IMG/VR virus record: IMGVR_UViG_3300031972_002122
Location: 64,571 to 128,570 of that record
DNA: 64,000 nt
Reading direction: 5' to 3' (one strand)
Source of the DNA: a virus
Below are positions 34,644 through 56,694 of the stretch, in pieces (the stretch's first letter is position 1; the number at the start of each line of letters is the position of its first letter). Made by a program: the position numbers and the translations under genes. Below the pieces are notes generated by a model. That model was given only the letters and a program-made list of their open reading frames with translations, had not been told where the DNA came from and ran no database searches.

Positions 34644-34678
34644 TTTGGTTATGTCTTGATGTTTTATATATATTTGCA
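34644..34678 (+). promoter_or_regulatory. Bacteroidota-type sigma70 promoter for tRNA block A
   Basis: TTTG...TATATTTG, matching -33 TTTG / -7 TAnnTTTG. Confidence 0.7.
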
Positions 34679-34706
34679 CATACTTATGAACGAAGAGATA
34701 CGAAAA

Positions 34707-34814
34707 ATGAAAACATTATTATATACATATAGTCTTTTATCGATGACACTGACAAGTGGCTGGTCGTTTTGCGACGGGACGGATTGTCTTTGTAATCTCC
34801 GCTGTGTGGAATAA
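34707..34814 (+). CDS. putative attenuator leader peptide of tRNA block A (MKTLLYTYSLLSMTLTSGWSFCDGTDCLCNLRCVE)
   Basis: Manual translation (in-frame upstream ATG at 34686); lies between promoter and terminator; composition matches downstream tRNAs. Confidence 0.75.
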   Translation: MKTLLYTYSLLSMTLTSGWSFCDGTDCLCNLRCVE

Positions 34815-34855
34815 AGTATTCATGTAATATGTAAGGGATACATTTTAAACATATA

Positions 34856-34891
34856 GAAGCTCGGAGACATAAAAAATCTTCGGGCTTTTTT
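34856..34891 (+). terminator. attenuator terminator upstream of tRNA block A
   Basis: GAAGCTCGGAGA/TCTTCGGGCTTT plus U-run. Confidence 0.8.
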
Positions 34892-44119: not shown

Positions 44120-45030
44120 TGGGAGGTGGAACGTATAATTTTAATGCTAGAGCTACGTCTTCGGTTACTAAAGGTTTTAACAAGGCAACTGTTGATTCGT
44201 TGGATACTGTATTTAAGCAGCAACGACAACGCCGAGTGCATGATAGTCTCGACCCACGCGGTGTGGTTATTCGGGAATCTAGGGATGGTGAGGATCACCC
44301 AGAATCATTAGCTATTTTAGTTGGTATAGATGTCACAACATCAATGGGTAACGTCCCAGTATTGTTAATACGTGACGGACTACCCAATATGATACAGCGT
44401 ATATTCGAGGAGGGTATCGCTGATCCACAGGTGGCGTTCATTGCCATCGGTGATCATGAGTGTGATAACTATCCATTACAGATCGGGCAGTTCGAATCTT
44501 CGGATCAGCTACTAGATGAGTCGTTGACCAACACCTATATTGAAGGTGGTGGTGGTGGCAATGGTGGTGAGAGTTATTTGTTAGCTTGGTACCACGCCGC
44601 GATGCACACGTCAATTGATTGTTTTGAAAAGCGCGGACAGAAAGGGGTTCTTATAACAATTGGTGATGAGCCATGTCTTAATAAGGTTTCTGGATCAGTA
44701 TTAGCTAGGTTGTATAATTTACAATCTGAACTAGATTATTCAGCAGCAGAATTGTTAAAACTTGCTTCGGAGAAGTATGATGTGTATCATATCAATGTCG
44801 GATCGACGTATTCTGGGTATAGATCGAGTACTAAGAATTATTGGAAAGAGTTGCTTAGTGATCATTTCATCGACGCTAAAAGTCATGAAGATATTCCTAG
44901 AATTGTTGCGGAGCTGACGTCTAAGAGTTATAGTGGTACTCGGCAGAAAGTTGAGACTGACTATGCTGAGGCTTATAATGGATCACCTACAGACGTGGAT
45001 GATATTAAAGAACCTAAAATCACATTATAA
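44119..45030 (+). CDS. vWA (MIDAS) domain protein
   Basis: DVTTSMG (DxTxS), AIGDHECD, EGGGGGNGGESY, ITIGDE. Confidence 0.85.
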   Translation: MGGGTYNFNARATSSVTKGFNKATVDSLDTVFKQQRQRRVHDSLDPRGVVIRESRDGEDHPESLAILVGIDVTTSMGNVPVLLIRDGLPNMIQRIFEEGIADPQVAFIAIGDHECDNYPLQIGQFESSDQLLDESLTNTYIEGGGGGNGGESYLLAWYHAAMHTSIDCFEKRGQKGVLITIGDEPCLNKVSGSVLARLYNLQSELDYSAAELLKLASEKYDVYHINVGSTYSGYRSSTKNYWKELLSDHFIDAKSHEDIPRIVAELTSKSYSGTRQKVETDYAEAYNGSPTDVDDIKEPKITL

Positions 45031-46178
45031 TGAATGTAAGTATTGTCACTGGAGTTGGATATGGCGACGAAGGTAAAGGCGTAACCACTAAGTGGCTATG
45101 CGAGCAATTGTTATCTGGGAATGATGATGTACATGTGATGGTAGTCCGATTTGGTGGTGGAAATCAAGTCGGACATACCACCATGGTTGATGATTTCATT
45201 CACACACATCATCACACTGGTGCTGGAACCTTAGTAAATGTACCAACGTTCTATTCTAGATTCTGTACTGTAGACCCAATTAACACGGTATCTGAGATTG
45301 AGTTCTTAACCCAGAAGGGATTTACACCACGTAATATGTATGACCCACGGTGTATGATTGTAACTCCACTCGATGTGATTTACAATCGAATGCGTCATGC
45401 TAAAACACAACACGGAAGTGTTGGGGTGGGGTTTGGTGCAACTATTGCTAGAAATGAATCACACTACCGACTATATGTTGCCGACATTGCAACTCGGGAG
45501 ATATTCATCCAGAAGTGTAAGGGTATCCAGCAATATTATAACAGCCTAGGTGTGGATTTTGATCTAGATTGTGAGGCGTTTTACATCGACTGTATTAACT
45601 TTTTAGATATTGTGGAGGTAAGCAATCTAAATCTGGAGATAACACGTTACATTGGCTCAAAATCGTCCCATATAGTATTTGAGGGGCATCAAGGGGTATT
45701 GCTAGATCAGGAATATGGTGTATTTCCCCATGTTACTAGATCAAAGACTACATGTAAGAATGCATTCACGATACTTGAAGAAGAGAACCTTAACGGGATA
45801 TGTGAGCATATAAATCAATTCATGGTAACGCGAGCATATCATACACGTCATGGTAATGGGTATTTTGAAGAGGAGGATATTTTACTGACAAATACTGAGT
45901 TTGAAACTAATAAATTCAGTGAGCATCAGGGAGCATTTAAAACAGCTCCACTTAACAAAGCATTATTGACTAGGGGAGTACTTTGTAATCTTATGGATGA
46001 GTCTGACTTAGGAAATATTAAAAGACATCTAGTAGTTACGTGTTGTGATCAAGTAGAGTCTTATGAGGACGTCATTGAATATATTTCTGAAACCACCCAA
46101 CTACTGGACACTCTGTGTATTAATGACCATCCATCAGGAAACATTAGACTATATGCCAAGGAAGAAAAAGATAACTAA
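45030..46178 (+). CDS. purA: adenylosuccinate synthetase-like protein (divergent PurA family)
   Basis: GYGDEGKG, RFGGGNQVGHT, HGSVGVG, FEGHQGVLLDQEYGVFPHVTRS, TRHGNG. Confidence 0.85.
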   Translation: MNVSIVTGVGYGDEGKGVTTKWLCEQLLSGNDDVHVMVVRFGGGNQVGHTTMVDDFIHTHHHTGAGTLVNVPTFYSRFCTVDPINTVSEIEFLTQKGFTPRNMYDPRCMIVTPLDVIYNRMRHAKTQHGSVGVGFGATIARNESHYRLYVADIATREIFIQKCKGIQQYYNSLGVDFDLDCEAFYIDCINFLDIVEVSNLNLEITRYIGSKSSHIVFEGHQGVLLDQEYGVFPHVTRSKTTCKNAFTILEEENLNGICEHINQFMVTRAYHTRHGNGYFEEEDILLTNTEFETNKFSEHQGAFKTAPLNKALLTRGVLCNLMDESDLGNIKRHLVVTCCDQVESYEDVIEYISETTQLLDTLCINDHPSGNIRLYAKEEKDN

Positions 46179-47034: not shown

Positions 47035-47668
47035 TATATTGAGTGAATCGTTAGACTTTGGCTTAATCAATGAGGCTGGACTAGCCAGAGTTTTATCTAG
47101 GGTCGGTGGTAAGGATTTTATTATAGCATCGGCGTATCGGTACGGGAATTCTAATAAGGAAAATCGAAGACGTAATGGTGAACTTTTAAATTATCTAAAC
47201 ACTAAGAGGATGGGCGGTTACGTTTTAATTGGACACTGGCAAGAAGCACCCGACGGGATAGAGTGGAAGGACGCTGATCAGGATCAGTTGACGGATTCTA
47301 TAGAAGAAGCTATTCTATTTATCAAGCCTGATGATATGAGTCGTGATGAATTTACACAAATTGGGGTAGACATAACCAATCAATATAATCAAGATGCGGT
47401 ATTATTAGGTTTAAACAGTTCTGAACTAGACGCTGAACCTGAAGCTGGAGCTCCGTCGTTAGATAATATGGATGTGTATCTACTCTTTAAGGATGGCGGT
47501 CGTGAGAAAATAGGCACCAGACTGACATTGAATAAAATATCTCAGGCTTATTCTCAATTAAAATCTAAACCAAACATTCCGTTTGTATTTGAAGGTGTGC
47601 TACATCCTACGAATAATCTGGGTAAGCAGCTCTTTAAGATAAAAAATATATTGTATGAAATTAATTGA
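47021..47668 (+). CDS. hypothetical protein (MKLIDIL.E N-terminus)
   Basis: IASAYR..NKENRRRN..L; YNQDAVL. Confidence 0.7.
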   Translation: MKLIDILSESLDFGLINEAGLARVLSRVGGKDFIIASAYRYGNSNKENRRRNGELLNYLNTKRMGGYVLIGHWQEAPDGIEWKDADQDQLTDSIEEAILFIKPDDMSRDEFTQIGVDITNQYNQDAVLLGLNSSELDAEPEAGAPSLDNMDVYLLFKDGGREKIGTRLTLNKISQAYSQLKSKPNIPFVFEGVLHPTNNLGKQLFKIKNILYEIN

Positions 47669-48341
47669 TATGTTAATAGAAACGTTGGTGACTGAAGGCG
47701 TGTATGATCCAGCGATATTTAAAGCAATTTTCATAGTAGGCGGTGCAGGCTCTGGGAAGACATTCGTTAGGAATAAATCGACTAGAGGATTGGGTTATAA
47801 AGTGGTGACGTCGGATGATATGCTTGTTTCGCTAATGAACAAGAATAATCTATCACTAAAAATGCCCCCAGAGGAGGATGATGAGCGTGATGCACTAAGA
47901 ACTATCGCTAAGGATAAAACAGACGATCGATTAGACATGTATCTAGAAAATCGCCTAGGTGTTATTATTGAAGGTACAGGGCATAATTATGAAAATATCA
48001 AAAATACTCAGCGGAGATTAGCTGAACTTGGGTACGACACGTTTATGATCTTTGTGAACGTTCCAATGGATGTAGCATTAGATAGAAATGCTAAACGAGA
48101 TAGATCAGTTCCACCAGATATTGTTAAAGAGAAATGGCTCAACGCTCAGCAAAACTTGGGTAGGTATCAGTCACTATTTGGTCGGAATAATGTTTCTATC
48201 ATAGATAATGATGACCCATCCGAGAATGTATTTGAACGAATGTGGAAAAACGTTATGATTTTTACCAAGATGAAGGTCAAAAATCACCGAGCAGTGGAGT
48301 GGATAAAGCAGCAATTGAAAAAAAAAGACAGAAATAATTAA
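47655..48341 (+). CDS. P-loop kinase, zeta-toxin/AAA_33-like
   Basis: GGAGSGKT, IIEGTG, VALDRNAKRDRSVP. Confidence 0.85.
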   Translation: MKLIDMLIETLVTEGVYDPAIFKAIFIVGGAGSGKTFVRNKSTRGLGYKVVTSDDMLVSLMNKNNLSLKMPPEEDDERDALRTIAKDKTDDRLDMYLENRLGVIIEGTGHNYENIKNTQRRLAELGYDTFMIFVNVPMDVALDRNAKRDRSVPPDIVKEKWLNAQQNLGRYQSLFGRNNVSIIDNDDPSENVFERMWKNVMIFTKMKVKNHRAVEWIKQQLKKKDRNN

Positions 48342-48346
48342 AATAA

Positions 48347-48380
48347 TTTGGTTTATTCGAAATGTTTTATATATATTTAC
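48347..48380 (+). promoter_or_regulatory. Bacteroidota-type promoter for tRNA block C
   Basis: TTTGG...TTTTATATATATTTA, near-copy of the block A promoter. Confidence 0.68.
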
Positions 48381-48397
48381 ACTAATTATAAAAAATC

Positions 48398-48478
48398 ATG
48401 TTAAGAAATATCAACATATCAGCCATTAAAGTGAATCGCATTAAAGCGAAAGGGTCGAAGTATGTCGTGTTGATATAA
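48398..48478 (+). CDS. putative attenuator leader peptide of tRNA block C (MLRNINISAIKVNRIKAKGSKYVVLI)
   Basis: Manual translation; I/K/N/R/A/V-rich; its 3' end is complementary to the terminator 5' arm. Confidence 0.8.
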   Translation: MLRNINISAIKVNRIKAKGSKYVVLI

Positions 48479-48504
48479 ACTAAATTAGAAGTAATTAAGG
48501 ATAT

Positions 48505-48539
48505 AAAGCCAGTACGACAAGATCGCACTGGCTTTTTTT
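48505..48539 (+). terminator. attenuator terminator directly before tRNA block C
   Basis: AAAGCCAGTACGA/TCGCACTGGCTTT plus U-run. Confidence 0.85.
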
Positions 48540-48542
48540 ATT

Positions 48543-48621
48543 GGCGAGTACCAGCCCATCCTGATAAGATGGAGAACTGTAATTGGTTGTTGAAAATGTG
48601 GGTTCAAATCCCATCTCGCCA
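48543..48621 (+). tRNA. atypical tRNA-Ile(GAT) lacking a normal D arm
   Basis: GGCGAG/CTCGCC-A; CCATC-CTGATAA-GATGG; GTGGG-TTCAAAT-CCCAT. Confidence 0.7.
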
Positions 48622-48637
48622 ACTTAACTGTTAAAAT

Positions 48638-48712
48638 ACGCATGTAGGCAAGTAGGTGAAGCCGTGAAGCTTATATCTTCATGACACGTTGGTTCGAACC
48701 CAACCATGCGTA
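48638..48712 (+). tRNA. tRNA-Ile(TAT)
   Basis: ACGCATG/CATGCGT-A; TGAAG-CTTATAT-CTTCA. Confidence 0.88.
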
Positions 48713-48830
48713 CAATAATTACAAATAAAAATATTTGTATTTTTTTTTCAAAAAAGTTTGGAAATACGTGAAAGTTGTTTATCTTAGTGTTGTAATCGGA
48801 GGGGATTATTATTAACCTAAACCTTATATC

Positions 48831-49352
48831 ATGACAACCACCGCAGTATTAAGTCGACCAATTGGCGAGCACAGAATTGAAGAATTGAAAAAAACAATTG
48901 AACACACTCGAGAATTGATGCGAGATCGATCTAGACGAATCGGGGAAGGTCTGACGGATATGGATGATTGCTTCATTTCAGAACGATCCAACCAGCAGAC
49001 TATAACTGGGTGTGAAATGAAGATTAATATTCTTGAAAACAAAGGACTTAGTCAATTTGAAGTACTCGTTGATATTGATACTGATGAGATAGTATCAGAT
49101 GGTGATCGGAGATATGGTGAGTATGGTGGATACTGGGTCATGAACGATGAGTATTATAAGCGAACTGGAAAACGTTACGTCGGAGATGCCAAACGAGAAT
49201 CGACTTTCACCAAGAAGGGTGTACGAAAGGAATATCGAGAATTTCCAGCATGGGTGTATTTTTCGGCAGGAGGTGGTAGTGGTTTGATGGGTGCGTATAC
49301 TGGATCATATCGTGTATTCCGTTCAGATAAAAATTACTACACCGAAAAATAA
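48831..49352 (+). CDS. hypothetical protein
   Basis: ORF after a sigma70-like promoter. Confidence 0.7.
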   Translation: MTTTAVLSRPIGEHRIEELKKTIEHTRELMRDRSRRIGEGLTDMDDCFISERSNQQTITGCEMKINILENKGLSQFEVLVDIDTDEIVSDGDRRYGEYGGYWVMNDEYYKRTGKRYVGDAKRESTFTKKGVRKEYREFPAWVYFSAGGGSGLMGAYTGSYRVFRSDKNYYTEK

Positions 49353-49427
49353 TTGTGTGGATATTTGATTTATATGAAAAAGTTTTTTATATTAGCGTAA
49401 CAATACTTAACCAAAAATACTAATACA

Positions 49428-49739
49428 ATGGATATCAATTTTGAAGAAATTATACTTAGACAGCAACTTTCGAGTCGTGGTGGGGGGATTGAGGTAGATT
49501 TAACAAGTCTTGGATTTCCAGAAGCTAAAATGACAGTGTACCAAAACTATTTGGGTGGTGGAATGCTTGGGAGAGTTTGCAACGATTGTACGATTAGTGA
49601 CTGGCGAGACGACGCGAAACTATCTAAGATTGCTGCAGAGCTTCGACAGTTCATGCATAAAGTTACAAATCCATCAGATGATGCGTGGGAATCTGTGAGT
49701 TATGAGCAGAATCAAAAAATGCCAGTAAGTGCATACTAG
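49428..49739 (+). CDS. hypothetical protein
   Basis: ORF after a sigma70-like promoter. Confidence 0.7.
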   Translation: MDINFEEIILRQQLSSRGGGIEVDLTSLGFPEAKMTVYQNYLGGGMLGRVCNDCTISDWRDDAKLSKIAAELRQFMHKVTNPSDDAWESVSYEQNQKMPVSAY

Positions 49740-49744
49740 TAATC

Positions 49745-50315
49745 CAAAGGGATTACATTAAATTTGACAGAAGAGCATAAACCGCCTCGGGGTGACTAGT
49801 TTGGATTGGCGTCTTAATTAGGTGAACTTAGAGGAAACGATATGTCAAAGCGTGTGGATACTATGAGCTGTAACCTTATCAGGTTAGACGTAAGAACTTT
49901 GGGTAAGACGTACTATGAGGGTGAAGTTATCAGGTTAGATGAAGCGCGTGAGTTGGTTGCCTGTTTGGAAGGGCAGCGAAGTATTGAGCGAGTTCGACAT
50001 ATCTGGGGATTCTGTATGTGGTAGGTCATTGCGATCCGCCAAGATCATATGACTGAGTTATTACTGAGTCCTCATTACCGCTCACGTATAATGATAAAAA
50101 CCTCGTGCGGTGAAATTCCCTCACTTGAATGAATCATATAGGCGTGATACCTATTTTGGAAAAACGTGAGGCGAGGTTTTAAAATAATAGTGCTTTACGT
50201 GGAGACCATTGCACTCGAAATATGTGGGTCTATCCTATCCCTTAAGCTGAGGGCATAGCAGAGAAGCTAGATGTTTAAAAACTCTGTGCTGAGCAAGCAC
50301 GCTAAAAGGCTCATA
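49745..50315 (+). ncRNA. candidate large structured ncRNA
   Basis: ~570 nt without a credible ORF, GC-richer than flanks, many long-range helices. Confidence 0.55.
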
Positions 50316-50337
50316 TTTTTAAAACTAAATATTTAGT

Positions 50338-50565
50338 ATGGATATGATAAATATGATGAATGCGTTTTTGAAGTTGGGTGAAATATCATCTCCAGACGCT
50401 TCATTAGAAGATAAGGTGAAGTATAAGGAGCGCATTGTTTTCGCTACTATGCGAGCATCTATACCTGATTGGAAAGTTCCAGCACATTACAATGAATTAG
50501 ACACTCAGGGGAAATACGATTTGTTGGTTAAACTTGAAAAAATAACAACTGAGGATACTCAGTGA
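50338..50565 (+). CDS. hypothetical protein
   Basis: ORF track. Confidence 0.6.
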   Translation: MDMINMMNAFLKLGEISSPDASLEDKVKYKERIVFATMRASIPDWKVPAHYNELDTQGKYDLLVKLEKITTEDTQ

Positions 50566-50578
50566 AAATAGTTGAATA

Positions 50579-51046
50579 ATGGCAAACCATGCACGGATTG
50601 TAAAAAATAAATTACCGATAACTGTAGCTGGTGTTGATATGATTGTTGATCGAATTATATCTGACCGATTTGGAGATGTTTTATCGGTGACTAAGAATTC
50701 TGAAACTGAGTGGTTGATTAGTGTGTATGGGGATAACACATATGAAGGTATTTTATTTTGGATCAATGAGGTAGGTGAATTAGAATTTAGACACGGTCAC
50801 GGATTTATACATTTTTGGTATTTAGAGGGAGTATTTAGAGAGAATTTGGCAGTGTTTTTTGGAGGAGATGTGAATGACGACGGGGTAGGAGAAGATGAAA
50901 TTCCCAGACCAGAAAAATATGAAAATTTTGATGCTTACTTTAGTAAATTACCAAAAAAATATTTGAAATCTATATACAAAGATTATTTACAACTTTACTC
51001 TAAGGAAATTTATGAAAAGTTAGAAGTTCCAGAATGGTTAAGGTGA
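50579..51046 (+). CDS. hypothetical protein
   Basis: ORF track. Confidence 0.65.
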   Translation: MANHARIVKNKLPITVAGVDMIVDRIISDRFGDVLSVTKNSETEWLISVYGDNTYEGILFWINEVGELEFRHGHGFIHFWYLEGVFRENLAVFFGGDVNDDGVGEDEIPRPEKYENFDAYFSKLPKKYLKSIYKDYLQLYSKEIYEKLEVPEWLR

Positions 51047-51202
51047 CGTAGCTCAGATATCGTTTGAAACGGAAGCTGCCAATTACTAACGAGTAATGTA
51101 GTCCTGAGTAGCACACGCGGAGTGTACATTAAACGTGTGAGATTTGGTTAGAGCATTATTCTGATAGAATAAGGGTCGGTGGTTCGAATCCACCCGTCGC
51201 AA
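51042..51202 (+). tRNA. tRNA-Ile(GAT) with ~85-nt structured insertion in the D loop
   Basis: GGTGACG-TA-GCTC-AG[insert]TTGGTTA-GAGC-A-TTATT-CTGATAG-AATAA...GGTGG-TTCGAAT-CCACC-CGTCGC. Confidence 0.75.
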
Positions 51203-51208
51203 CGAATT

Positions 51209-51281
51209 GGGGGTGTAGCTCAACTGGATGAGCACTTGCTTTGCAAGTAGGGAGATGTGGGTTCGAGTCCCATCACTTCCA
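51209..51281 (+). tRNA. tRNA-Ala(TGC)
   Basis: GGGGGTG/CACTTCC-A (G3:U70); CTTGC-TTTGCAA-GTAGG. Confidence 0.92.
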
Positions 51282-51398
51282 CTAATAATTGAAATATCGT
51301 TCGGTGAACGTCCGAAACACCGAGTAGTAACTGTTCAGAGCGGTCAAACACTTGGGAATGACGTCCCTGACGATAATTCTTTTTAAAATGTAAATAAA

Positions 51399-52577
51399 AT
51401 GAAACAAGTAATAAGTAGTCAGAAGAAGCCAATTAAGATGTGGCTAGATAATCTGGAGCATGGAGCGATCCAGCAAGCTAAGAACTTGGCGAACTTGCCA
51501 TTCTTATTTAAGCATGTTGCGATTATGCCAGACTCACATCAGGGTTATGGTATGCCGATCGGTGGTGTACTAGCTACTGAAGGTGTGGTTATACCGAATG
51601 CTGTCGGTGTTGACATTGGATGTGGGATGTGTAGTGTTAAGACTAGCATCAAAACGGAAGAGATTGATAAAATTGACTTCTCAAAGTTAATGAACTTGAT
51701 CCGTAAGAAGGTTCCAGTGGGATTTAACCATCACCAGCGAAATCAGAATTCCAAGTGGATGCCTGATGGGATGGATGATGTACCAAAGACTGGTAACATT
51801 CGGAAGGAGTTGAGTAGTGCGCTGAAGCAAGTAGGCACACTCGGTGGTGGTAATCACTTTATAGAGATACAAGCTGGTGATGATGGCTATGTGTGGATAA
51901 TGATTCACTCAGGGTCACGTAACTTAGGTTATAAGACAGCTAGACACCATAACACGTTGGCTAAAGAGATCAATAAGAAATATTGGTCTGAGGTTCCACC
52001 ATCGTGGGATTTAGCATTCTTACTGATCGACTCGCAGGAGGGACAGGATTATATAAGTGAGCTTAATTATGCGACGAAGTTTGCGCTAGCAAACCGTGCA
52101 CATATGATGGAAGCTGTTAAAGAATGTTTAATTGATGTAGCGGGATGGGGTGTTACGTTTGATCCGATGATCAACAAGCCACATAACTTTGCGGAGATGG
52201 AACATCACTTTGGTAAGAATGTTATGGTACACCGTAAGGGTGCTTGTCGGGCTAGGAATGGTGAAGTGGGTATGATACCCGGCTCTCAAGGAACGCACTC
52301 GTATATCGTGAAGGGTAAGGGTGAGGAAAACTCATTCCAGTCTTGCTCACACGGTGCTGGTAGAGTGATGGGACGTAAAGCCGCTCAGAGAAGTTTAGAT
52401 TTTGACACTGAGGTTAAGCGGTTGAATGACATGGGAGTGTACCACACATTAGAAACGGTAAAGCAATTAGATGAAGCTGCAGGGGCATATAAAGATATTG
52501 ACCTCGTGATGGAAAACCAATCTGATCTAGTAGAAATATTAGTGAAGCTGAAGCCATTAGCAGTAGTAAAAGCATAA
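51399..52577 (+). CDS. rtcB: RNA ligase RtcB
   Basis: MPDSHQGYGMPIGG, VGVDIGCGM, GTLGGGNHFIE, HSGSR, HN, HRKGA, SCSHGAGR, DEAAGAYKDI. Confidence 0.96.
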   Translation: MKQVISSQKKPIKMWLDNLEHGAIQQAKNLANLPFLFKHVAIMPDSHQGYGMPIGGVLATEGVVIPNAVGVDIGCGMCSVKTSIKTEEIDKIDFSKLMNLIRKKVPVGFNHHQRNQNSKWMPDGMDDVPKTGNIRKELSSALKQVGTLGGGNHFIEIQAGDDGYVWIMIHSGSRNLGYKTARHHNTLAKEINKKYWSEVPPSWDLAFLLIDSQEGQDYISELNYATKFALANRAHMMEAVKECLIDVAGWGVTFDPMINKPHNFAEMEHHFGKNVMVHRKGACRARNGEVGMIPGSQGTHSYIVKGKGEENSFQSCSHGAGRVMGRKAAQRSLDFDTEVKRLNDMGVYHTLETVKQLDEAAGAYKDIDLVMENQSDLVEILVKLKPLAVVKA

Positions 52578-52579
52578 AG

Positions 52580-52674
52580 ATATCCTGACGTCAGGTTCGA
52601 TTCCTGAATTCCACCACGGTACCATTGGGTGGATGTTCTTTGCGCAAAGAATTCCTTGGTGGCAGTTGGGACAT
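52580..52674 (+). ncRNA. permuted tRNA-like RNA (YrlA-like arrangement)
   Basis: outer stem ATATCCTGAC/GTTGGGACAT enclosing a T arm TCAGG-TTCGATT-CCTGA, then a TCCACC/GGTGGA hairpin. Confidence 0.5.
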
Positions 52675-52693
52675 TTTATAACATATTCAATAT

Positions 52694-52948
52694 ATGAAAT
52701 TTATTGTAACCTCAGTAATATATTTGGATGATGTACTCGTCGATAGTCGAGTGTCATTCTGTGAGAATGAATCATTGATGAAAGCAGTTGACGCTGAATG
52801 TCGTAGACGTATGGATTTCTCCGAGGAGAATAATGTACTGACGCCATCACTATCATTTCATATTAGAGAGAATTGTATCATAGTACAAGATACAAGAGCT
52901 CAAGCGGTGCACGTTGTGGCACCATTTATAAATTGCCTCGGGAGCTGA
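52694..52948 (+). CDS. hypothetical protein
   Basis: ORF track. Confidence 0.55.
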   Translation: MKFIVTSVIYLDDVLVDSRVSFCENESLMKAVDAECRRRMDFSEENNVLTPSLSFHIRENCIIVQDTRAQAVHVVAPFINCLGS

Positions 52949-53007
52949 CAAGGCGTAGCGACTGGCTGTTAACCAGAGGGCGGTGGGTTCGATTCCCACC
53001 CGAGGCG
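52935..53007 (+). tRNA. tRNA-Asn(GTT)
   Basis: GCCTCGG/CCGAGGC-G; CTGG-CTGTTAA-CCAG. Confidence 0.9.
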
Positions 53008-53111
53008 CAAAACATACAGGTAGATTGTGAGGTATAAGCAATCTTTTAATCTTGATACTTGCTTTAAATAGCACAGAACGCTTAGTCTAGTATCATCCTA
53101 TGTGTTAATTT

Positions 53112-53185
53112 AGCCTCATGGCGCAATTGGATAGCGCACTTGACTACGAATCAAGAGGTTGAAGGTTCGAATCCTTCTGGGGCTA
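53112..53185 (+). tRNA. tRNA-Arg(ACG)
   Basis: AGCCTCA/TGGGGCT; CTTGA-CTACGAA-TCAAG. Confidence 0.93.
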
Positions 53186-53200
53186 CAAAATATAAATACA

Positions 53201-53716
53201 ATGGATCGTGTTTTTAAAACAATGGATGGTGAAGTAGTTGACGTGATACCATACACGTTCGATTTCATCCGAGACAACAAAGGGACTAAAATCTTTGTTG
53301 GAGCAGACTCACAAGTTCGTAGGTATACTATCAAGTACGCCGTATGTATTGTGTATCGATATGGTACGCTCTTCTCATACACCGAGGGTGGTGTGAAGCG
53401 TGAGATCGGGAAGGGATGTCACGTACTTAAATCGGTCTGGGAGGTACCCAAGCGTGGTGCTGGTACTGGTGAAGCGTTGTTGATTAAGAGGTTGATGGAT
53501 GAAATAACGACATCTATAGTAACTGCAGAGACATTGCGAGAAAACGCGATACACGTTGAACAAATTGATTTTGACTTGAATGATGATGATCAGTGCGCGT
53601 CACATAAAATGGTGAGTACTGCGAGAGGTTGGGCAACTGGTCTTGGATATAAAGTGAGTATAAAACCAGATATGCAGTTCGCTACTAAGGCAGCTAACCA
53701 TATTGTAAACCATTAA
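53201..53716 (+). CDS. RNase H-like YkuK (DUF458) family protein
   Basis: KIFVGADSQ, RLMDEITTS, IDFDLN, IKPD..ATKAAN. Confidence 0.8.
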   Translation: MDRVFKTMDGEVVDVIPYTFDFIRDNKGTKIFVGADSQVRRYTIKYAVCIVYRYGTLFSYTEGGVKREIGKGCHVLKSVWEVPKRGAGTGEALLIKRLMDEITTSIVTAETLRENAIHVEQIDFDLNDDDQCASHKMVSTARGWATGLGYKVSIKPDMQFATKAANHIVNH

Positions 53717-53720
53717 TAAT

Positions 53721-53750
53721 ATGAAGTATAAACGAAAATATAAACAGTAA
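53721..53750 (+). CDS. Lys-rich leader peptide (MKYKRKYKQ)
   Basis: AAG plus 3x AAA in 9 codons; followed by a hairpin and three tRNA-Lys genes. Confidence 0.72.
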   Translation: MKYKRKYKQ

Positions 53751-53783
53751 TTAACTTCACCAGCGAGTCTGGGGGAGTTAAAT

Positions 53784-53856
53784 ACCCCCAATGCTCGTAT
53801 GGTAGAGCACCTGACTTTTAATCAGGGTATAGTGAGTTCGAATCTCACTGGGGGTA
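53784..53856 (+). tRNA. tRNA-Lys(TTT)
   Basis: ACCCCCA/TGGGGGT; CCTGA-CTTTTAA-TCAGG. Confidence 0.92.
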
Positions 53857-53866
53857 CATATGATAT

Positions 53867-53938
53867 CCGCTCGAAGCATTGCTGGCGATGTTCTTGGCTC
53901 TTAACCTTGAGAATTGGGTTCGATTCCCGACGGGCGGA
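53867..53938 (+). tRNA. tRNA-Lys(CTT)
   Basis: CCGCTCG/CGGGCGG; CTCTTAA loop; weak anticodon stem. Confidence 0.78.
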
Positions 53939-53947
53939 CAATTTTAA

Positions 53948-54038
53948 ACCCCCATAGCTGAATTGGAAGCAGTACTGTAAGGGAACAAGCAACGCACTTT
54001 TAATGCGTGGGATGTGAGTTCGAGTCTCACTGGGGGTA
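53948..54038 (+). tRNA. tRNA-Lys(TTT) with enlarged D loop
   Basis: ACCCCCA/TGGGGGT; ACGCA-CTTTTAA-TGCGT; ~17 extra nt in the D loop. Confidence 0.8.
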
Positions 54039-54093
54039 CTAAAATATATTACGTAATTTGTATAATGTTGAGAATTTTTTATATTTGCTTTAT

Positions 54094-54345
54094 ATGAATA
54101 AGAAAGATAAAGAAACGTATAAAAAGATTGTGGAAGGTGAATGGAAAGACATGCCTGAATTCCACCAAGACGATTTAACGTCTAAGCGAAAGATTGTTGT
54201 TCATTTTAGGAACGATGATGATGTAAAAAAGTTTGAGGAGTTGATGGATCAAAAGATAACGCCAAAGCAAAAATCGCTATGGTATCCATACATGCCTCCT
54301 AGACGGTATGCTCATAAACGATATATAGACGAAGATGAATCCTAG
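54094..54345 (+). CDS. small protein of the type found next to GREB1/TAGT-like glycosyltransferases
   Basis: WKDMPEF..IVVHFRN..F..LMDQKITPKQKSLWYP. Confidence 0.65.
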   Translation: MNKKDKETYKKIVEGEWKDMPEFHQDDLTSKRKIVVHFRNDDDVKKFEELMDQKITPKQKSLWYPYMPPRRYAHKRYIDEDES

Positions 54346-55201
54346 ATATCCTATATACATACCATCTAAGGGTCGATACGAGACGCGTAAGACCGTTAAA
54401 GCACTCGATGCTATATCGGTGCCATATCGGATCGTTGTAGAGCCACAGGAGTACGATAAATACGCTGCAGTCATTGACGAGCATAATATATTAGTACTCC
54501 CAGAGGATAACGTGAAGTTAATCGGTGCTCGGAATTGGATAAAGCAACATTCAATATCGGAGGGGTATGAGCGACATTGGCAACTTGATGATAATATAGA
54601 ACAGTTCAATAGGCTTAATAGAAATTACCAAGTCAAGGTATCGTCTGGGACTATATTTAGGTGTGCTGAAGATTTCACGGATAGGTATGACAACATAGCT
54701 TATTCAGGATTTCAATACGATCACTTCGCAAAGGCGAAGACTAAGATGTTACCATTTATATTGAATACACGGGTGTATTCGTGTACGTTAGTCAATAACC
54801 TTGCACCATACGCTTGGCGATCGATTTATAATGATGATACTGATGTGTGTCTTCAAGCTTTGAAAGATGGGTGGTGTACTGTGTTGTTCAACGCATTCCT
54901 CCAGTGTAAAGCTACGACAATGACAGTTAAGGGTGGAAACACTGAAGAGTTATATTTGATCGAGGATGGTCGTAAGAAGATGGCACAGGCGTTAGTAGAC
55001 TTACATCCAGACGTTGCTAAGGTAGCGTGGAGATTTAATCGATGGCAACATGTAGTGGACTATAGCTCATTCAAGTTGAATAATCGATTGCAGAAGAAAG
55101 ATGGTATAACGATCCCAGAAGGGATCAATAATTATGGTATGAAATTAGTCACCGTAGATTCTGATGAATACACACGGTGGGAAGCAAATAAGCTCCTTTA
55201 G
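54335..55201 (+). CDS. GREB1-like / TET-associated glycosyltransferase (putative DNA base modification)
   Basis: YPIYIPSKGR, GARNWI, WQLDDNI, YNDDTD.CLQAL..GWCT, KGGNT. Confidence 0.82.
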   Translation: MNPRYPIYIPSKGRYETRKTVKALDAISVPYRIVVEPQEYDKYAAVIDEHNILVLPEDNVKLIGARNWIKQHSISEGYERHWQLDDNIEQFNRLNRNYQVKVSSGTIFRCAEDFTDRYDNIAYSGFQYDHFAKAKTKMLPFILNTRVYSCTLVNNLAPYAWRSIYNDDTDVCLQALKDGWCTVLFNAFLQCKATTMTVKGGNTEELYLIEDGRKKMAQALVDLHPDVAKVAWRFNRWQHVVDYSSFKLNNRLQKKDGITIPEGINNYGMKLVTVDSDEYTRWEANKLL

Positions 55202-55266
55202 CTCAGTTGGTTTAGAGCACTTGTTTTACATGCATGGGGTCGTAGGTTCGAATCCTACAGGGAGCA
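55192..55266 (+). tRNA. tRNA-Val(TAC)
   Basis: GCTCCTT/AGGGAGC-A; TTTACAT loop. Confidence 0.88.
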
Positions 55267-55278
55267 CAAATTAAATAT

Positions 55279-55728
55279 ATGACAAATTCAGAGATAATAA
55301 GTTTAGGTATTAACATTGGCGTTTTTGACGAAACAGTAACAGATTTTGAATTACAATATATACTATTCACTCATTATATGGAGAGGATGGCTGTTATGGG
55401 CTTATTATCTAGTTCTGGTGGGGAATATGAAATATCAGATACTGGTAAGGCGGTGATTGAATTTCTAGTTAGTAATGAGTATACACTAAATGCTGATGAT
55501 TTGAAAATGTTTATGATGAACGACGTTGAACAATATGTACAATTAATACCTGTTATTGACGCGTTCGTGGAGTCTATTATACTCCTACACACTGACGGTG
55601 AAGATGTCTTAATTAATCGTCTTATAGACTTAGGTGCTAGGCGTGATCCTGATGAGATAGATGCATTGATTGAGATGCATAGCGAGATGGTGGAGCAGGT
55701 AAAGACCAAGTATAATATTACTGAATAA
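55279..55728 (+). CDS. hypothetical protein
   Basis: ORF track. Confidence 0.6.
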   Translation: MTNSEIISLGINIGVFDETVTDFELQYILFTHYMERMAVMGLLSSSGGEYEISDTGKAVIEFLVSNEYTLNADDLKMFMMNDVEQYVQLIPVIDAFVESIILLHTDGEDVLINRLIDLGARRDPDEIDALIEMHSEMVEQVKTKYNITE

Positions 55729-55731
55729 CAT

Positions 55732-55804
55732 GCTCCCTTGGCTCAACGGATAGAGTATCCGACTTCGAATCGGAGGATTATAGGTTCGAATCCTATAGGG
55801 AGTA
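55732..55804 (+). tRNA. tRNA-Arg(TCG)
   Basis: GCTCCCT/AGGGAGT; TCCGA-CTTCGAA-TCGGA. Confidence 0.93.
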
Positions 55805-55941
55805 CAAATAGGTTCTACCACATCCAGACGTGGACGGTAGATTATAAAAATAATTCCATAAAAGTTTGTTAATACCAATATTTTTTATATATTAGTGTTC
55901 TAAAAATTTATTGCATTTTTTATTTCATTTAAAACAACAAT

Positions 55942-56421
55942 ATGAAAGGTTCAATTTTTACGATTATGTTCATGCTATTGATTAGCACATTCATCACCGC
56001 ACAGACTGAAGCTCCAGTGGATGATGATCGTGGGTGGTATCAGGGTGATATACTGGCAGGTGCCAATACGACACTGGACAACACATCACTTTTAAATGTT
56101 CAGTTCTCACCAGTAGTTGGTTACGCCGTAACGGATTATGATATGGTAACGACATCGATCATTTACGCTGACAGTGATGGCTCGGCAAGTTACAGTGTTC
56201 AAGTTGGTTATCAACGAGCTGTATGGCTTGACGGCTTATATGTAGGTGCTGGATTGGGATTAGTTAATTTTACAGGGGAATCCAATACAATTATTAATGC
56301 TAATGTCGGATATTTTGCAAAATTAGGAAACTACTGGTATGTATCGCCAAGGCTTGGATTTGAGACCTCGGATGGGGATTCTAATTTGATGACTCAGCTA
56401 ACCTTTGGATTTGTTTTGTAA
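55942..56421 (+). CDS. outer-membrane beta-barrel protein (8-strand type) with signal peptide
   Basis: signal peptide, alternating beta strands (FSPVVGY, LYVGAGLG, YWYVSPRLGF), C-terminal LTFGFVL. Confidence 0.75.
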   Translation: MKGSIFTIMFMLLISTFITAQTEAPVDDDRGWYQGDILAGANTTLDNTSLLNVQFSPVVGYAVTDYDMVTTSIIYADSDGSASYSVQVGYQRAVWLDGLYVGAGLGLVNFTGESNTIINANVGYFAKLGNYWYVSPRLGFETSDGDSNLMTQLTFGFVL

Positions 56422-56446
56422 TAGTAAATAATAGTTAAACATATAC

Positions 56447-56479
56447 GAGGGAAGTTGATACATGTCAACTTCCCTTTTT
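56447..56479 (+). terminator. intrinsic terminator
   Basis: GAGGGAAGTTGATA/TGTCAACTTCCCTT plus U-run. Confidence 0.85.
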
Positions 56480-56486
56480 AATATAA

Positions 56487-56558
56487 GCTCCTATGGTGTA
56501 ATGGATAGCACAAGAGTTTTCTAAACTTTTAGTTGGGGTTCGAATCCCTGTAGGAGTA
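56487..56558 (+). tRNA. tRNA-Arg(TCT)
   Basis: GCTCCTA/TAGGAGT; AGAGT-TTTCTAA-ACTTT. Confidence 0.9.
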
Positions 56559-56694
56559 CAATCGTTAAGAAATGCCCGCTGATGATCTCGGTGGGTATTC
56601 TTATTAGTGTGGTTGTAATTTTATATCCATTTAATTTTATTTATTGATAAATTACATTTATATTAGCGTAAAATTACGATCACCAACCAAATAC

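Follow-up and report, generated by a model that had tools for sequence, protein, structure and literature searches.

How does a phage that carries many tRNA genes control when they are transcribed? Discussions of such genes usually center on codon usage or on escape from host tRNA-cleaving defenses, and to our knowledge little has been established about the control of their expression. The question is raised by a stretch of viral DNA of 64,000 nucleotides (nt; hereafter the window) that forms the last part, positions 64,571 to 128,570, of the 128,570-base IMG/VR virus record IMGVR_UViG_3300031972_002122, whose completeness is estimated at 73%. The window has a G+C content of approximately 39%, and its + strand carries approximately 31 tRNA genes from 34950 to 56559, with open reading frames (ORFs) in between, in three blocks that we call A, B, and C. 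At the head of block C lies an element (48398–48539) that, based on comparisons of its sequence, we interpret with a probability of approximately 0.8 as a ribosome-mediated leader-peptide transcription attenuator gating the block of tRNA genes. A previous reading made from the letters alone (the sequence-only reading) had proposed an attenuator with a codon-matched leader whose ORF 3' end acts as the antiterminator; this proposal is now supported by the membership of the element in a family and by the co-variation, within that family, of leader with tRNAs and of antiterminator with terminator. The features on which the argument turns are as follows:

48348–48379, + strand: putative promoter element, with TTGGTT at 48348–48353 and TTTATATATATTT at 48366–48378, containing a TATATTTA box at 48372–48379
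48398–48478, + strand: leader ORF of 26 codons plus a stop codon (48476–48478), MLRNINISAIKVNRIKAKGSKYVVLI
48408–48417, + strand: segment 1, ATATCAACAT, which pairs with segment 2 in the minimum free energy (MFE) fold
48463–48476, + strand: segment 2, of which 48467–48476 pairs with segment 1 and 48463–48472 pairs with segment 3 (the antiterminator)
48510–48519, + strand: segment 3, within the 5' arm of the terminator and shared by antiterminator and terminator
48505–48539, + strand: intrinsic terminator, with a hairpin at 48505–48535 (-15 kcal/mol) and a T-run (T7) at 48533–48539
48542–48622, + strand: unusual tRNA-Ile(GAU) gene, the putative first regulated gene

Codon Composition of the Leader

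The leader ORF begins 20 nt past the promoter-like motif. Our recount agrees with the sequence-only reading that 19 of the 25 post-start residues of MLRNINISAIKVNRIKAKGSKYVVLI are I, K, N, R, A, or V, the same amino acids as those of the block C tRNAs; among the residues are five I, four K, three N, three V, and two R, with only one G. Cognate codons occupy 14 of the 16 positions from codon 2 through codon 17, and the noncognate residues (L, S, G, S, Y, and L) lie mostly near the 3' end. Under standard wobble rules, the leader codons cover nine of the ten distinct block C anticodons, the exception being UCG; the count is 10 of 11 if the UAA anticodon of a tRNA-Leu call that we reject below is included. 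Scored against the tRNA sets of the other two blocks of the genome, the same leader has six and zero cognate residues.

Codons for I, K, and N are frequent in AT-rich DNA, and no Shine–Dalgarno sequence is visible upstream of the leader ATG. Both points favor the explanation that the reading frame arose by chance in an AT-rich leader and that the region functions as a short noncoding RNA, a constitutive terminator, or a hairpin that processes or stabilizes the tRNA precursor. We consider this explanation very improbable. An AT-matched null had been named beforehand as the refuting test, and the enrichment persists against it: dinucleotide-preserving shuffles of the ORF body (n = 20,000) contain a mean of 11.4 cognate residues (standard deviation 2.3) compared with the 19 observed (p = 0.001), and the stop-free shuffles alone (n = 1,923) yield p = 0.005. 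The enrichment is also specific to the frame, given that the other two reading frames have 8 and 9 cognate residues of 25. When the 619 ATG-initiated ORFs of 20–45 amino acids in the six frames of the 128,570-base genome are ranked by cognate fraction, the leader is first and is the sole one to reach 0.76. The composition of the leader exceeds an effect of AT richness. Furthermore, a constitutive strong terminator 2–3 nt ahead of a promoterless tRNA gene would silence that tRNA, and no Rfam family matches the leader region.

A Family of tRNA-Array Leaders in Huge Phages

Sequence comparison places the window element in a family of leaders that huge phages carry ahead of their tRNA arrays. When 18 huge-phage sequences, with the window left out, are used to build a covariance model, the model matches 48398–48539 over model positions 1–137 of 137 with a score of 44.9 bits (E = 2.3e-6, the E-values of this model being only roughly calibrated). 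The next match of the model is the leader of block A in the same window (34707–34891; 17.8 bits, E = 0.25).

The family was reached through the first tRNA gene of block C, which has a counterpart with 86% identity in the uncultured phage LR756502 (642 kb). A pattern derived from this tRNA gene led to three metagenome contigs in which a small ORF and a CCCAGTC...GACTGGG terminator with a T-run lie a few nt ahead of a tRNA-Ile gene. A search of IMG/VR with the terminator pattern returned 110 loci, which together with the other loci of the analysis comprise 132 placements with both strands counted. A + strand tRNA gene is located within 700 nt in 26 of these placements, and in 25 of the 26 an ORF of 15–45 codons ends 10–70 nt upstream; the approximately 106 placements that have no tRNA within 700 nt are taken as ordinary terminators. 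The 25 ORFs represent 19 distinct leaders that form 16 clusters at 60% identity (L110, which has no ORF by this rule, is outside the permutation counts given below). The family so defined is composed of LR756502, LR745206, and the IMG/VR and JGI contigs L026–L130. In one of these contigs, L072, the same leader and terminator occur at the same coordinates on both strands, which may be an inverted-duplicate assembly artefact.

Family members share the ATG, a near-invariant AACATA at codons 6–7, the ORF length, an AT-rich spacer, a CCAGT...ACTGG core followed by a T-run, and a tRNA-Ile gene behind it. The frame, the length (21–31 codons), and the start are retained in all 19 distinct leaders, which argues against a chance frame.

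Searches that started from the surroundings of the element gave little. The ATPase encoded at 47655–48341 has relatives at 20 IMG/VR loci with at most 48% identity (at most 54% for the nearest in a large protein collection), and the 173-amino-acid protein encoded at 48831–49352 has a relative at one IMG/VR locus; among the 21 loci reached from both flanking proteins, a single tRNA gene is present in one and an array beside the gene in none. A blastn search of GenBank phages with 48200–48850 matched the first tRNA gene (LR756502) and a short stretch of the ATPase gene (LR756500), with the leader uncovered. Searches of IMG/VR with the exact 3' half of that tRNA gene and with the promoter pattern returned no match in either case. 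A seawater metagenome is the only run that contains the whole stretch of this uncultured phage, with no RNA run listed for it, and among contigs from four DNA runs the leader is spanned only in this probable source run.

Leader Codons and tRNA Sets across the Family

Across the family, the codons of the leader change in step with the tRNA genes behind it. A leader with QQQQQ, MKMITQQQQQNNIREVDR, precedes three tRNA-Gln genes; the leaders MNTTTNILSYYYEEKN..., MTTITNIAYYYEGER..., MTNNNNISLLTSSYEGYEYE..., and MNTLIYIGYIAEGGYEAGS..., with residues such as YYYEE, stand ahead of Glu/Tyr arrays; behind MRTIINIEAIGYAYEAGS... are genes for Glu, Tyr, Glu, Ile, Gly, and Ala; behind MTTITTYTGKQYPQGKQTPTG... 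are those for Pro, Pro, Gln, Tyr, and Thr; behind MKNRMNICDYRNINNINECEDY... are those for Asp, Asp, Tyr, Cys, Met, Ile, Ile, Asn, and Arg; and leaders rich in I, A, and G precede Ile, Gly, and Ala. Approximately eight distinct leader flavors can be recognized when the window is counted. Over the 16 clusters, the cognate residues sum to 158 compared with 94.7 ± 11.4 when the tRNA sets are permuted (0 of 100,000 permutations), and to 72 compared with 33.7 ± 6.4 when I, G, and A are excluded (0 of 100,000); these tests reject a chance association and thereby also count against a chance frame. With its own set, the window leader has 21 cognate residues if Leu is included (19 without Leu), and with none of the 16 other sets does it exceed 11; the permutation runs to which the window was added used the set that includes the rejected Leu.

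Two array heads of LR756502, MRTINKHKHFSKLNKWFSNHRFEAKAFC ahead of Phe, His, Phe, Trp, and three Lys tRNA genes and MKTTIKNTSSRSRSSKSGEVRLYS ahead of Arg, three Ser, and Arg, have different terminators and are therefore free of the ascertainment introduced by the search pattern. The region of LR756502 in which such heads were observed (370000–410000; L029) contains 44 tRNA genes in five clusters, with at least three heads that have codon-matched leaders and terminators differing in sequence.

The conservation of the ORF also has to be weighed against the explanation that its product is a functional small protein, whose gene has a promoter and a terminator of its own and is a mere neighbor of the tRNA genes. 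In the huge phages, this product could be a small membrane peptide with a glycine-zipper-like pattern of I, A, and G. The length of 21–31 codons and the N-terminal M-K-x-x-x-N-I-S are indeed conserved across distant phages, and the leaders rich in I, A, and G resemble a hydrophobic helix. However, the character of the peptide varies in step with the tRNAs, from hydrophobic (I/A/G) to polar (QQQQQ), acidic and aromatic (YYYEE), and, in the window, basic (K/R/N). Two huge-phage copies with 75% DNA identity share approximately 15 of 27 residues by an eye count, which we judge to be little above neutral, and the 3' end of the ORF co-varies with the terminator, a property that a protein gene does not need. 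Given these properties, we regard a protein function as highly unlikely.

Alternative Helices of the Leader Transcript

The terminator consists of an outer stem of 9 base pairs (bp; 48505–48513/48527–48535) and an inner stem of 3 bp (48515–48517/48523–48525), and its T-run stops 2–3 nt ahead of the tRNA-Ile gene at 48542, in agreement with the distance of 3 nt given by the sequence-only reading. The built-in terminator scan missed this hairpin because its loop is longer than 8 nt. The antiterminator that the same reading had proposed, 48463–48472 with 48510–48519, is borne out by RNAduplex: it has 8 Watson–Crick and 2 G-U pairs and an energy of -11.4 kcal/mol, and it lies at positions -14 to -3 relative to the stop codon. 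A second helix, absent from the previous reading, joins the start of the ORF to its end (segment 1 with segment 2) and would complete the classical attenuator layout; the two pairings of segment 2 overlap by 6 nt.

The evidence for these helices is strongest in the family as a whole. Of 20 sequences, 17 have the best partner of the terminator 5' arm and loop within -33 to +6 of the stop codon, the exceptions being L072 and L108 (-44 to -33) and L130, which has an early stop codon, and the pairing has p <= 0.05 in dinucleotide shuffles for 14 of the 20. The partner follows the variable inner part of the terminator (TGAATG/CATTCA, CAGAC/GTCTG, GAGAC or GTGGC with GTCTC or GTCAC, and in the window GTCGT/ACGAC). 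In 18 sequences, the antiterminator energies of leaders with their own terminators sum to -218.6 kcal/mol compared with -172.2 ± 7.5 after the terminators are exchanged among the sequences (0 of 100,000); for the window, its own pairing of -11.4 compares with a mean of -7.5 and ranks first of 18. The helix from start to end, which in many relatives pairs ATAACAT with ATGTTAT, behaves similarly (own pairs sum to -225.7, swapped pairs to -167.9 ± 11.8; 0 of 100,000). L130, given its early stop codon, and L057, which has two candidate ORFs, were left out of both swap tests.

Proposed Switch

Modelled on the trp attenuator, we infer a scheme of leader translation, stalling, and switching whose reach would extend to the distal tRNA genes and RtcB. 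Transcription would begin at the promoter-like motif (approximately 48366–48379), and ribosomes would translate the 26-codon leader. With fast decoding, the ribosome would arrive at the stop codon (48476–48478) and mask segment 2, as expected from the size of the ribosome footprint, so that the terminator (48505–48535) would form and the polymerase would halt at the T-run. With scarce charged tRNA for Ile, Lys, Asn, Arg, Ala, or Val, the ribosome would stall at codons 2–17, keeping segment 1 off and leaving segment 2 free to pair with 48510–48519; the terminator would then be blocked and transcription would enter the tRNA genes. If the leader were not translated, segments 1 and 2 would pair, and termination would be the default. 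The net effect would be negative feedback, the tRNA set being made when its codons are read slowly.

Putative Promoter Motif and the Other tRNA Blocks

On the + strand of the window, TTTATATATATTT occurs only at 34663, 42554, and 48366, which are the heads of the three tRNA blocks, and each copy has a TTGGTT- or TTGTTT-like element upstream. A similar TT[AT]ATATATA motif lies 26–73 nt ahead of 9 of the 19 huge-phage leaders. Motifs of the TTTWATATATA type precede the leaders of L030, L043, L046, L048, L055, L082, L090, L093, and L108, often with a TAnnTTTG-like box, and several other family members carry TATATTTGTAAAA in place of this motif. We take the TAnnTTTG-like box to resemble the Bacteroidota -7 element, which would suggest a Bacteroidota host.

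The head of block A (34686–34891) has the same layout as that of block C, with an ORF, a hairpin-plus-T terminator (T-run from 34885), and tRNA genes. Its leader, MNEEIRKMKTLLYTYSLLSMTLTSGWSFCDGTDCLCNLRCVE, has 29 of 34 residues, counted from an internal Met, that are cognate to Y, F, W, D, G, T, M, S, C, and L (dinucleotide-shuffle p = 5e-5) and just 4 that are cognate to the set of block C.

Upstream of block C, the window also contains a gene for a PurZ/PurA-like adenylosuccinate synthetase (45030–46178; phrog_1211, 1.6e-43) that has no relative in IMG/VR and at most 35% identity to proteins of GenBank phages (Vibrio, Rhizobium, and Mycobacterium phages). This gene may indicate a genome with modified adenine.

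tRNA Genes behind the Leader

The first gene behind the terminator is recognized by the Rfam tRNA model (RF00005) with 34 bits and is missed by ARAGORN at default settings. It has normal acceptor, anticodon, and T arms, a D arm of approximately 4 nt, and a variable region of approximately 22–24 nt. Its relatives in LR756502 and the three metagenome contigs (e.g., L024 1501–1585 and L027 10594–10675) carry the anticodon UAU with compensating changes in the anticodon stem, whereas the window copy carries GAU. The genes that follow it are these:

48638–48713, + strand: tRNA-Ile(UAU), found by ARAGORN; Rfam 60.8 bits
51138–51202, + strand: weak Ile(GAU)-like gene with a reduced D arm, 28.6 bits compared with an Rfam cut-off of 29
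51138–56421, + strand: putative distal read-through unit of tRNA genes, RtcB, and small ORFs
from 51209, + strand: tRNA-Ala, block C
51399–52577, + strand: RtcB RNA ligase gene (Pfam PF01139, 6.9e-111), among the block C tRNA genes
from 52935, + strand: tRNA-Asn, block C
from 53112, + strand: tRNA-Arg(ACG), block C
from 53784, + strand: tRNA-Lys(UUU), block C
from 53867, + strand: tRNA-Lys(CUU), block C
53948–54039, + strand: Lys(UUU)-like gene with an insertion
54335–55201: TET-associated glycosyltransferase gene (1.3e-43), among the block C tRNA genes
from 55192, + strand: tRNA-Val, block C
from 55732, + strand: tRNA-Arg(UCG), block C
56447–56476, + strand: strong terminator with a 13-bp stem, -18.9 kcal/mol
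56487–56559, + strand: tRNA-Arg(UCU), behind the preceding terminator

The tally of the sequence-only reading (three Ile, Ala, Asn, three Arg, three Lys, and Val) is confirmed by this list, with two members that are weak or odd. At 53948–54039, ARAGORN called a tRNA-Leu(UAA); we rejected this call given that the anticodon loop, CUUUUAA, is Lys(UUU)-like.

We consider it plausible that 48541–56447 forms one long unit that would include the Ile, Ala, Asn, Arg, Lys, and Val tRNA genes together with RtcB. The proposed reach of the leader to the distal tRNA genes is based on its K, N, R, and V codons and on a scan of the + strand from 48541 to 56447 in which no strong hairpin with a T-run was found. 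The terminator at 56447–56476 probably ends the unit; a second strong hairpin-plus-T terminator lies at 56571–56599, so that the pair brackets tRNA-Arg(UCU) at 56487–56559. The sequence-only reading had described the attenuator as a master control reaching to 56558. The absence of a strong terminator within 48541–56447 is consistent with this reach for most of its length, and its end is doubtful given that tRNA-Arg(UCU) is located behind the terminator at 56447–56476.

The presence of RtcB allows a more specific, possible but doubtful interpretation, in which block C would be an on-demand operon for the replacement and repair of tRNAs whose leader senses decoding of Lys, Arg, Asn, and Ile codons, the same design being retuned in phages of approximately 130–640 kb. 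The tRNAs for Lys, Arg, and Asn are targets of anticodon nucleases. If host tRNAs were depleted, by such nucleases or by a phage-induced shut-off, stalled ribosomes would open the attenuator, and fresh tRNAs would be coexpressed with RtcB, by which cleaved tRNAs could be rejoined; a single transcript would then combine the sensor with the countermeasure.

Evidence against Attenuation and a Less Specific Alternative

Several observations weigh against the attenuator. In the window, neither alternative helix is significant by itself in dinucleotide shuffles (antiterminator, p = 0.076 with 500 shuffles; helix from start to end, p = 0.057), which also favors a chance frame, and the antiterminator of block A is not significant by itself (p = 0.34). 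In the full-length fold, the terminator state (-32.6 kcal/mol) is 7 kcal/mol stabler than the forced antiterminator state (-25.6 kcal/mol), so that any switching must be kinetic. In a transcript cut at 48526, before the 3' arm of the terminator, the MFE structure already contains the antiterminator with no ribosome present, which makes the default-off step uncertain. The head of block B has the promoter motif and no hairpin-plus-T terminator, and its first ORF, MEMLKHFLK, has 3 of 8 cognate residues, which is not significant. Likewise, in the distant relative G002, which has 14 tRNA genes, two array heads have TTGACA-type promoters and no combination of codon-matched leader and terminator. Two further points concern the family: conservation of the terminator is by construction because the members were collected with one terminator pattern, and the number of independent retunings is smaller than 16 because the clusters are related by descent.

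The remaining points bear on what the leader senses and how far it acts. Because the N-terminal M-x-x-x-x-N-I-S is retained independently of the tRNA set, some codons of the leader are not sensors. The tRNA genes for K, N, R, and V lie 4.4–7.3 kb downstream with protein genes in between and possible internal promoters, and an AT-only hairpin with a T-run is seen by eye after tRNA-Ile(UAU) at approximately 48722–48750. This partial conservation, the kilobases to the distal tRNA genes, and the AT-only hairpin are what would be expected if the attenuator sensed overall translation capacity instead of specific cognate tRNAs, or if it gated just the two adjacent tRNA-Ile genes. Such a restricted role is, in our assessment, improbable. 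The leader has four K, three N, two R, and three V codons beside its five I and one G, whereas relatives that precede tRNA-Gly genes hold three to five G. The family consensus GGC GCG GGG AGC is replaced in the window by AAA GCG AAA GGG TCG, in which GCG is retained; the Gly tRNA genes of the window are located in block A and the Lys tRNA genes in block C. Specific matching is, moreover, found family-wide. We therefore continue to favor an attenuator that responds to the decoding of codons specific for the block C tRNAs.

Comparison with Known Systems

The nearest systems are the modules of the huge phages. The window phage is marine and of approximately 130–175 kb, and the huge-phage family members are 0.4–0.6 Mb. 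In the window, the terminator has an additional inner stem to which the antiterminator has been altered to fit, and codons for Lys, Asn, Arg, and Val, which match a different tRNA set, stand in place of Gly codons. The tRNA genes of the window are dispersed over 8 kb among protein genes, in contrast to the packed arrays of the huge phages. Given that the family covers a marine phage as well as phages of 0.4–0.6 Mb, the mechanism, if true, would be widespread.

We found no description of attenuation of tRNA genes in the literature searched, the scope of which lies largely outside subscription journals. What is most likely new is the application of leader-peptide attenuation to tRNA genes instead of enzymes of amino-acid biosynthesis. 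If true, this would constitute a direct feedback loop in which slow decoding turns on the tRNAs that cure the slowness, and classical attenuation, which acts on the supply of amino acids, would be extended to that of tRNAs. The grouping of tRNA genes into particular sets in large phages would also be explained, the leader being a readable label for each tRNA operon.

The element has a likeness to the T-box, given that read-through of a terminator is governed by tRNA status in both. The T-box, however, acts by direct binding of uncharged tRNA and does so without an ORF, and its targets are genes for aminoacyl-tRNA synthetases and amino-acid genes; searches of 33000–58000 and of 48480–48760 gave no match at E <= 1 to the T-box or to any other cis-regulatory family of Rfam.

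The closest mechanistic parallel is provided by the leader-peptide attenuators of enterobacteria, which include trpL, hisL, leuL, and pheL and the multivalent thrL and ilvL. The phage element shares with them a promoter-proximal short ORF rich in regulatory codons, an intrinsic terminator ahead of the regulated genes, an antiterminator that overlaps the end of the ORF, and a candidate helix between an upstream segment and segment 2 that may give termination without translation. As in ilvL and thrL, several amino acids would be sensed together, although the phage leader covers six amino acids and nine anticodons, whereas enterobacterial leaders have runs of one or two. The element is phage borne and has no sequence relation to the enterobacterial leaders. 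Finally, the genes regulated by enterobacterial attenuators encode biosynthetic enzymes, whereas here they would be tRNA genes and possibly an RNA ligase gene, so that the class of molecule that is sensed would itself be the product.

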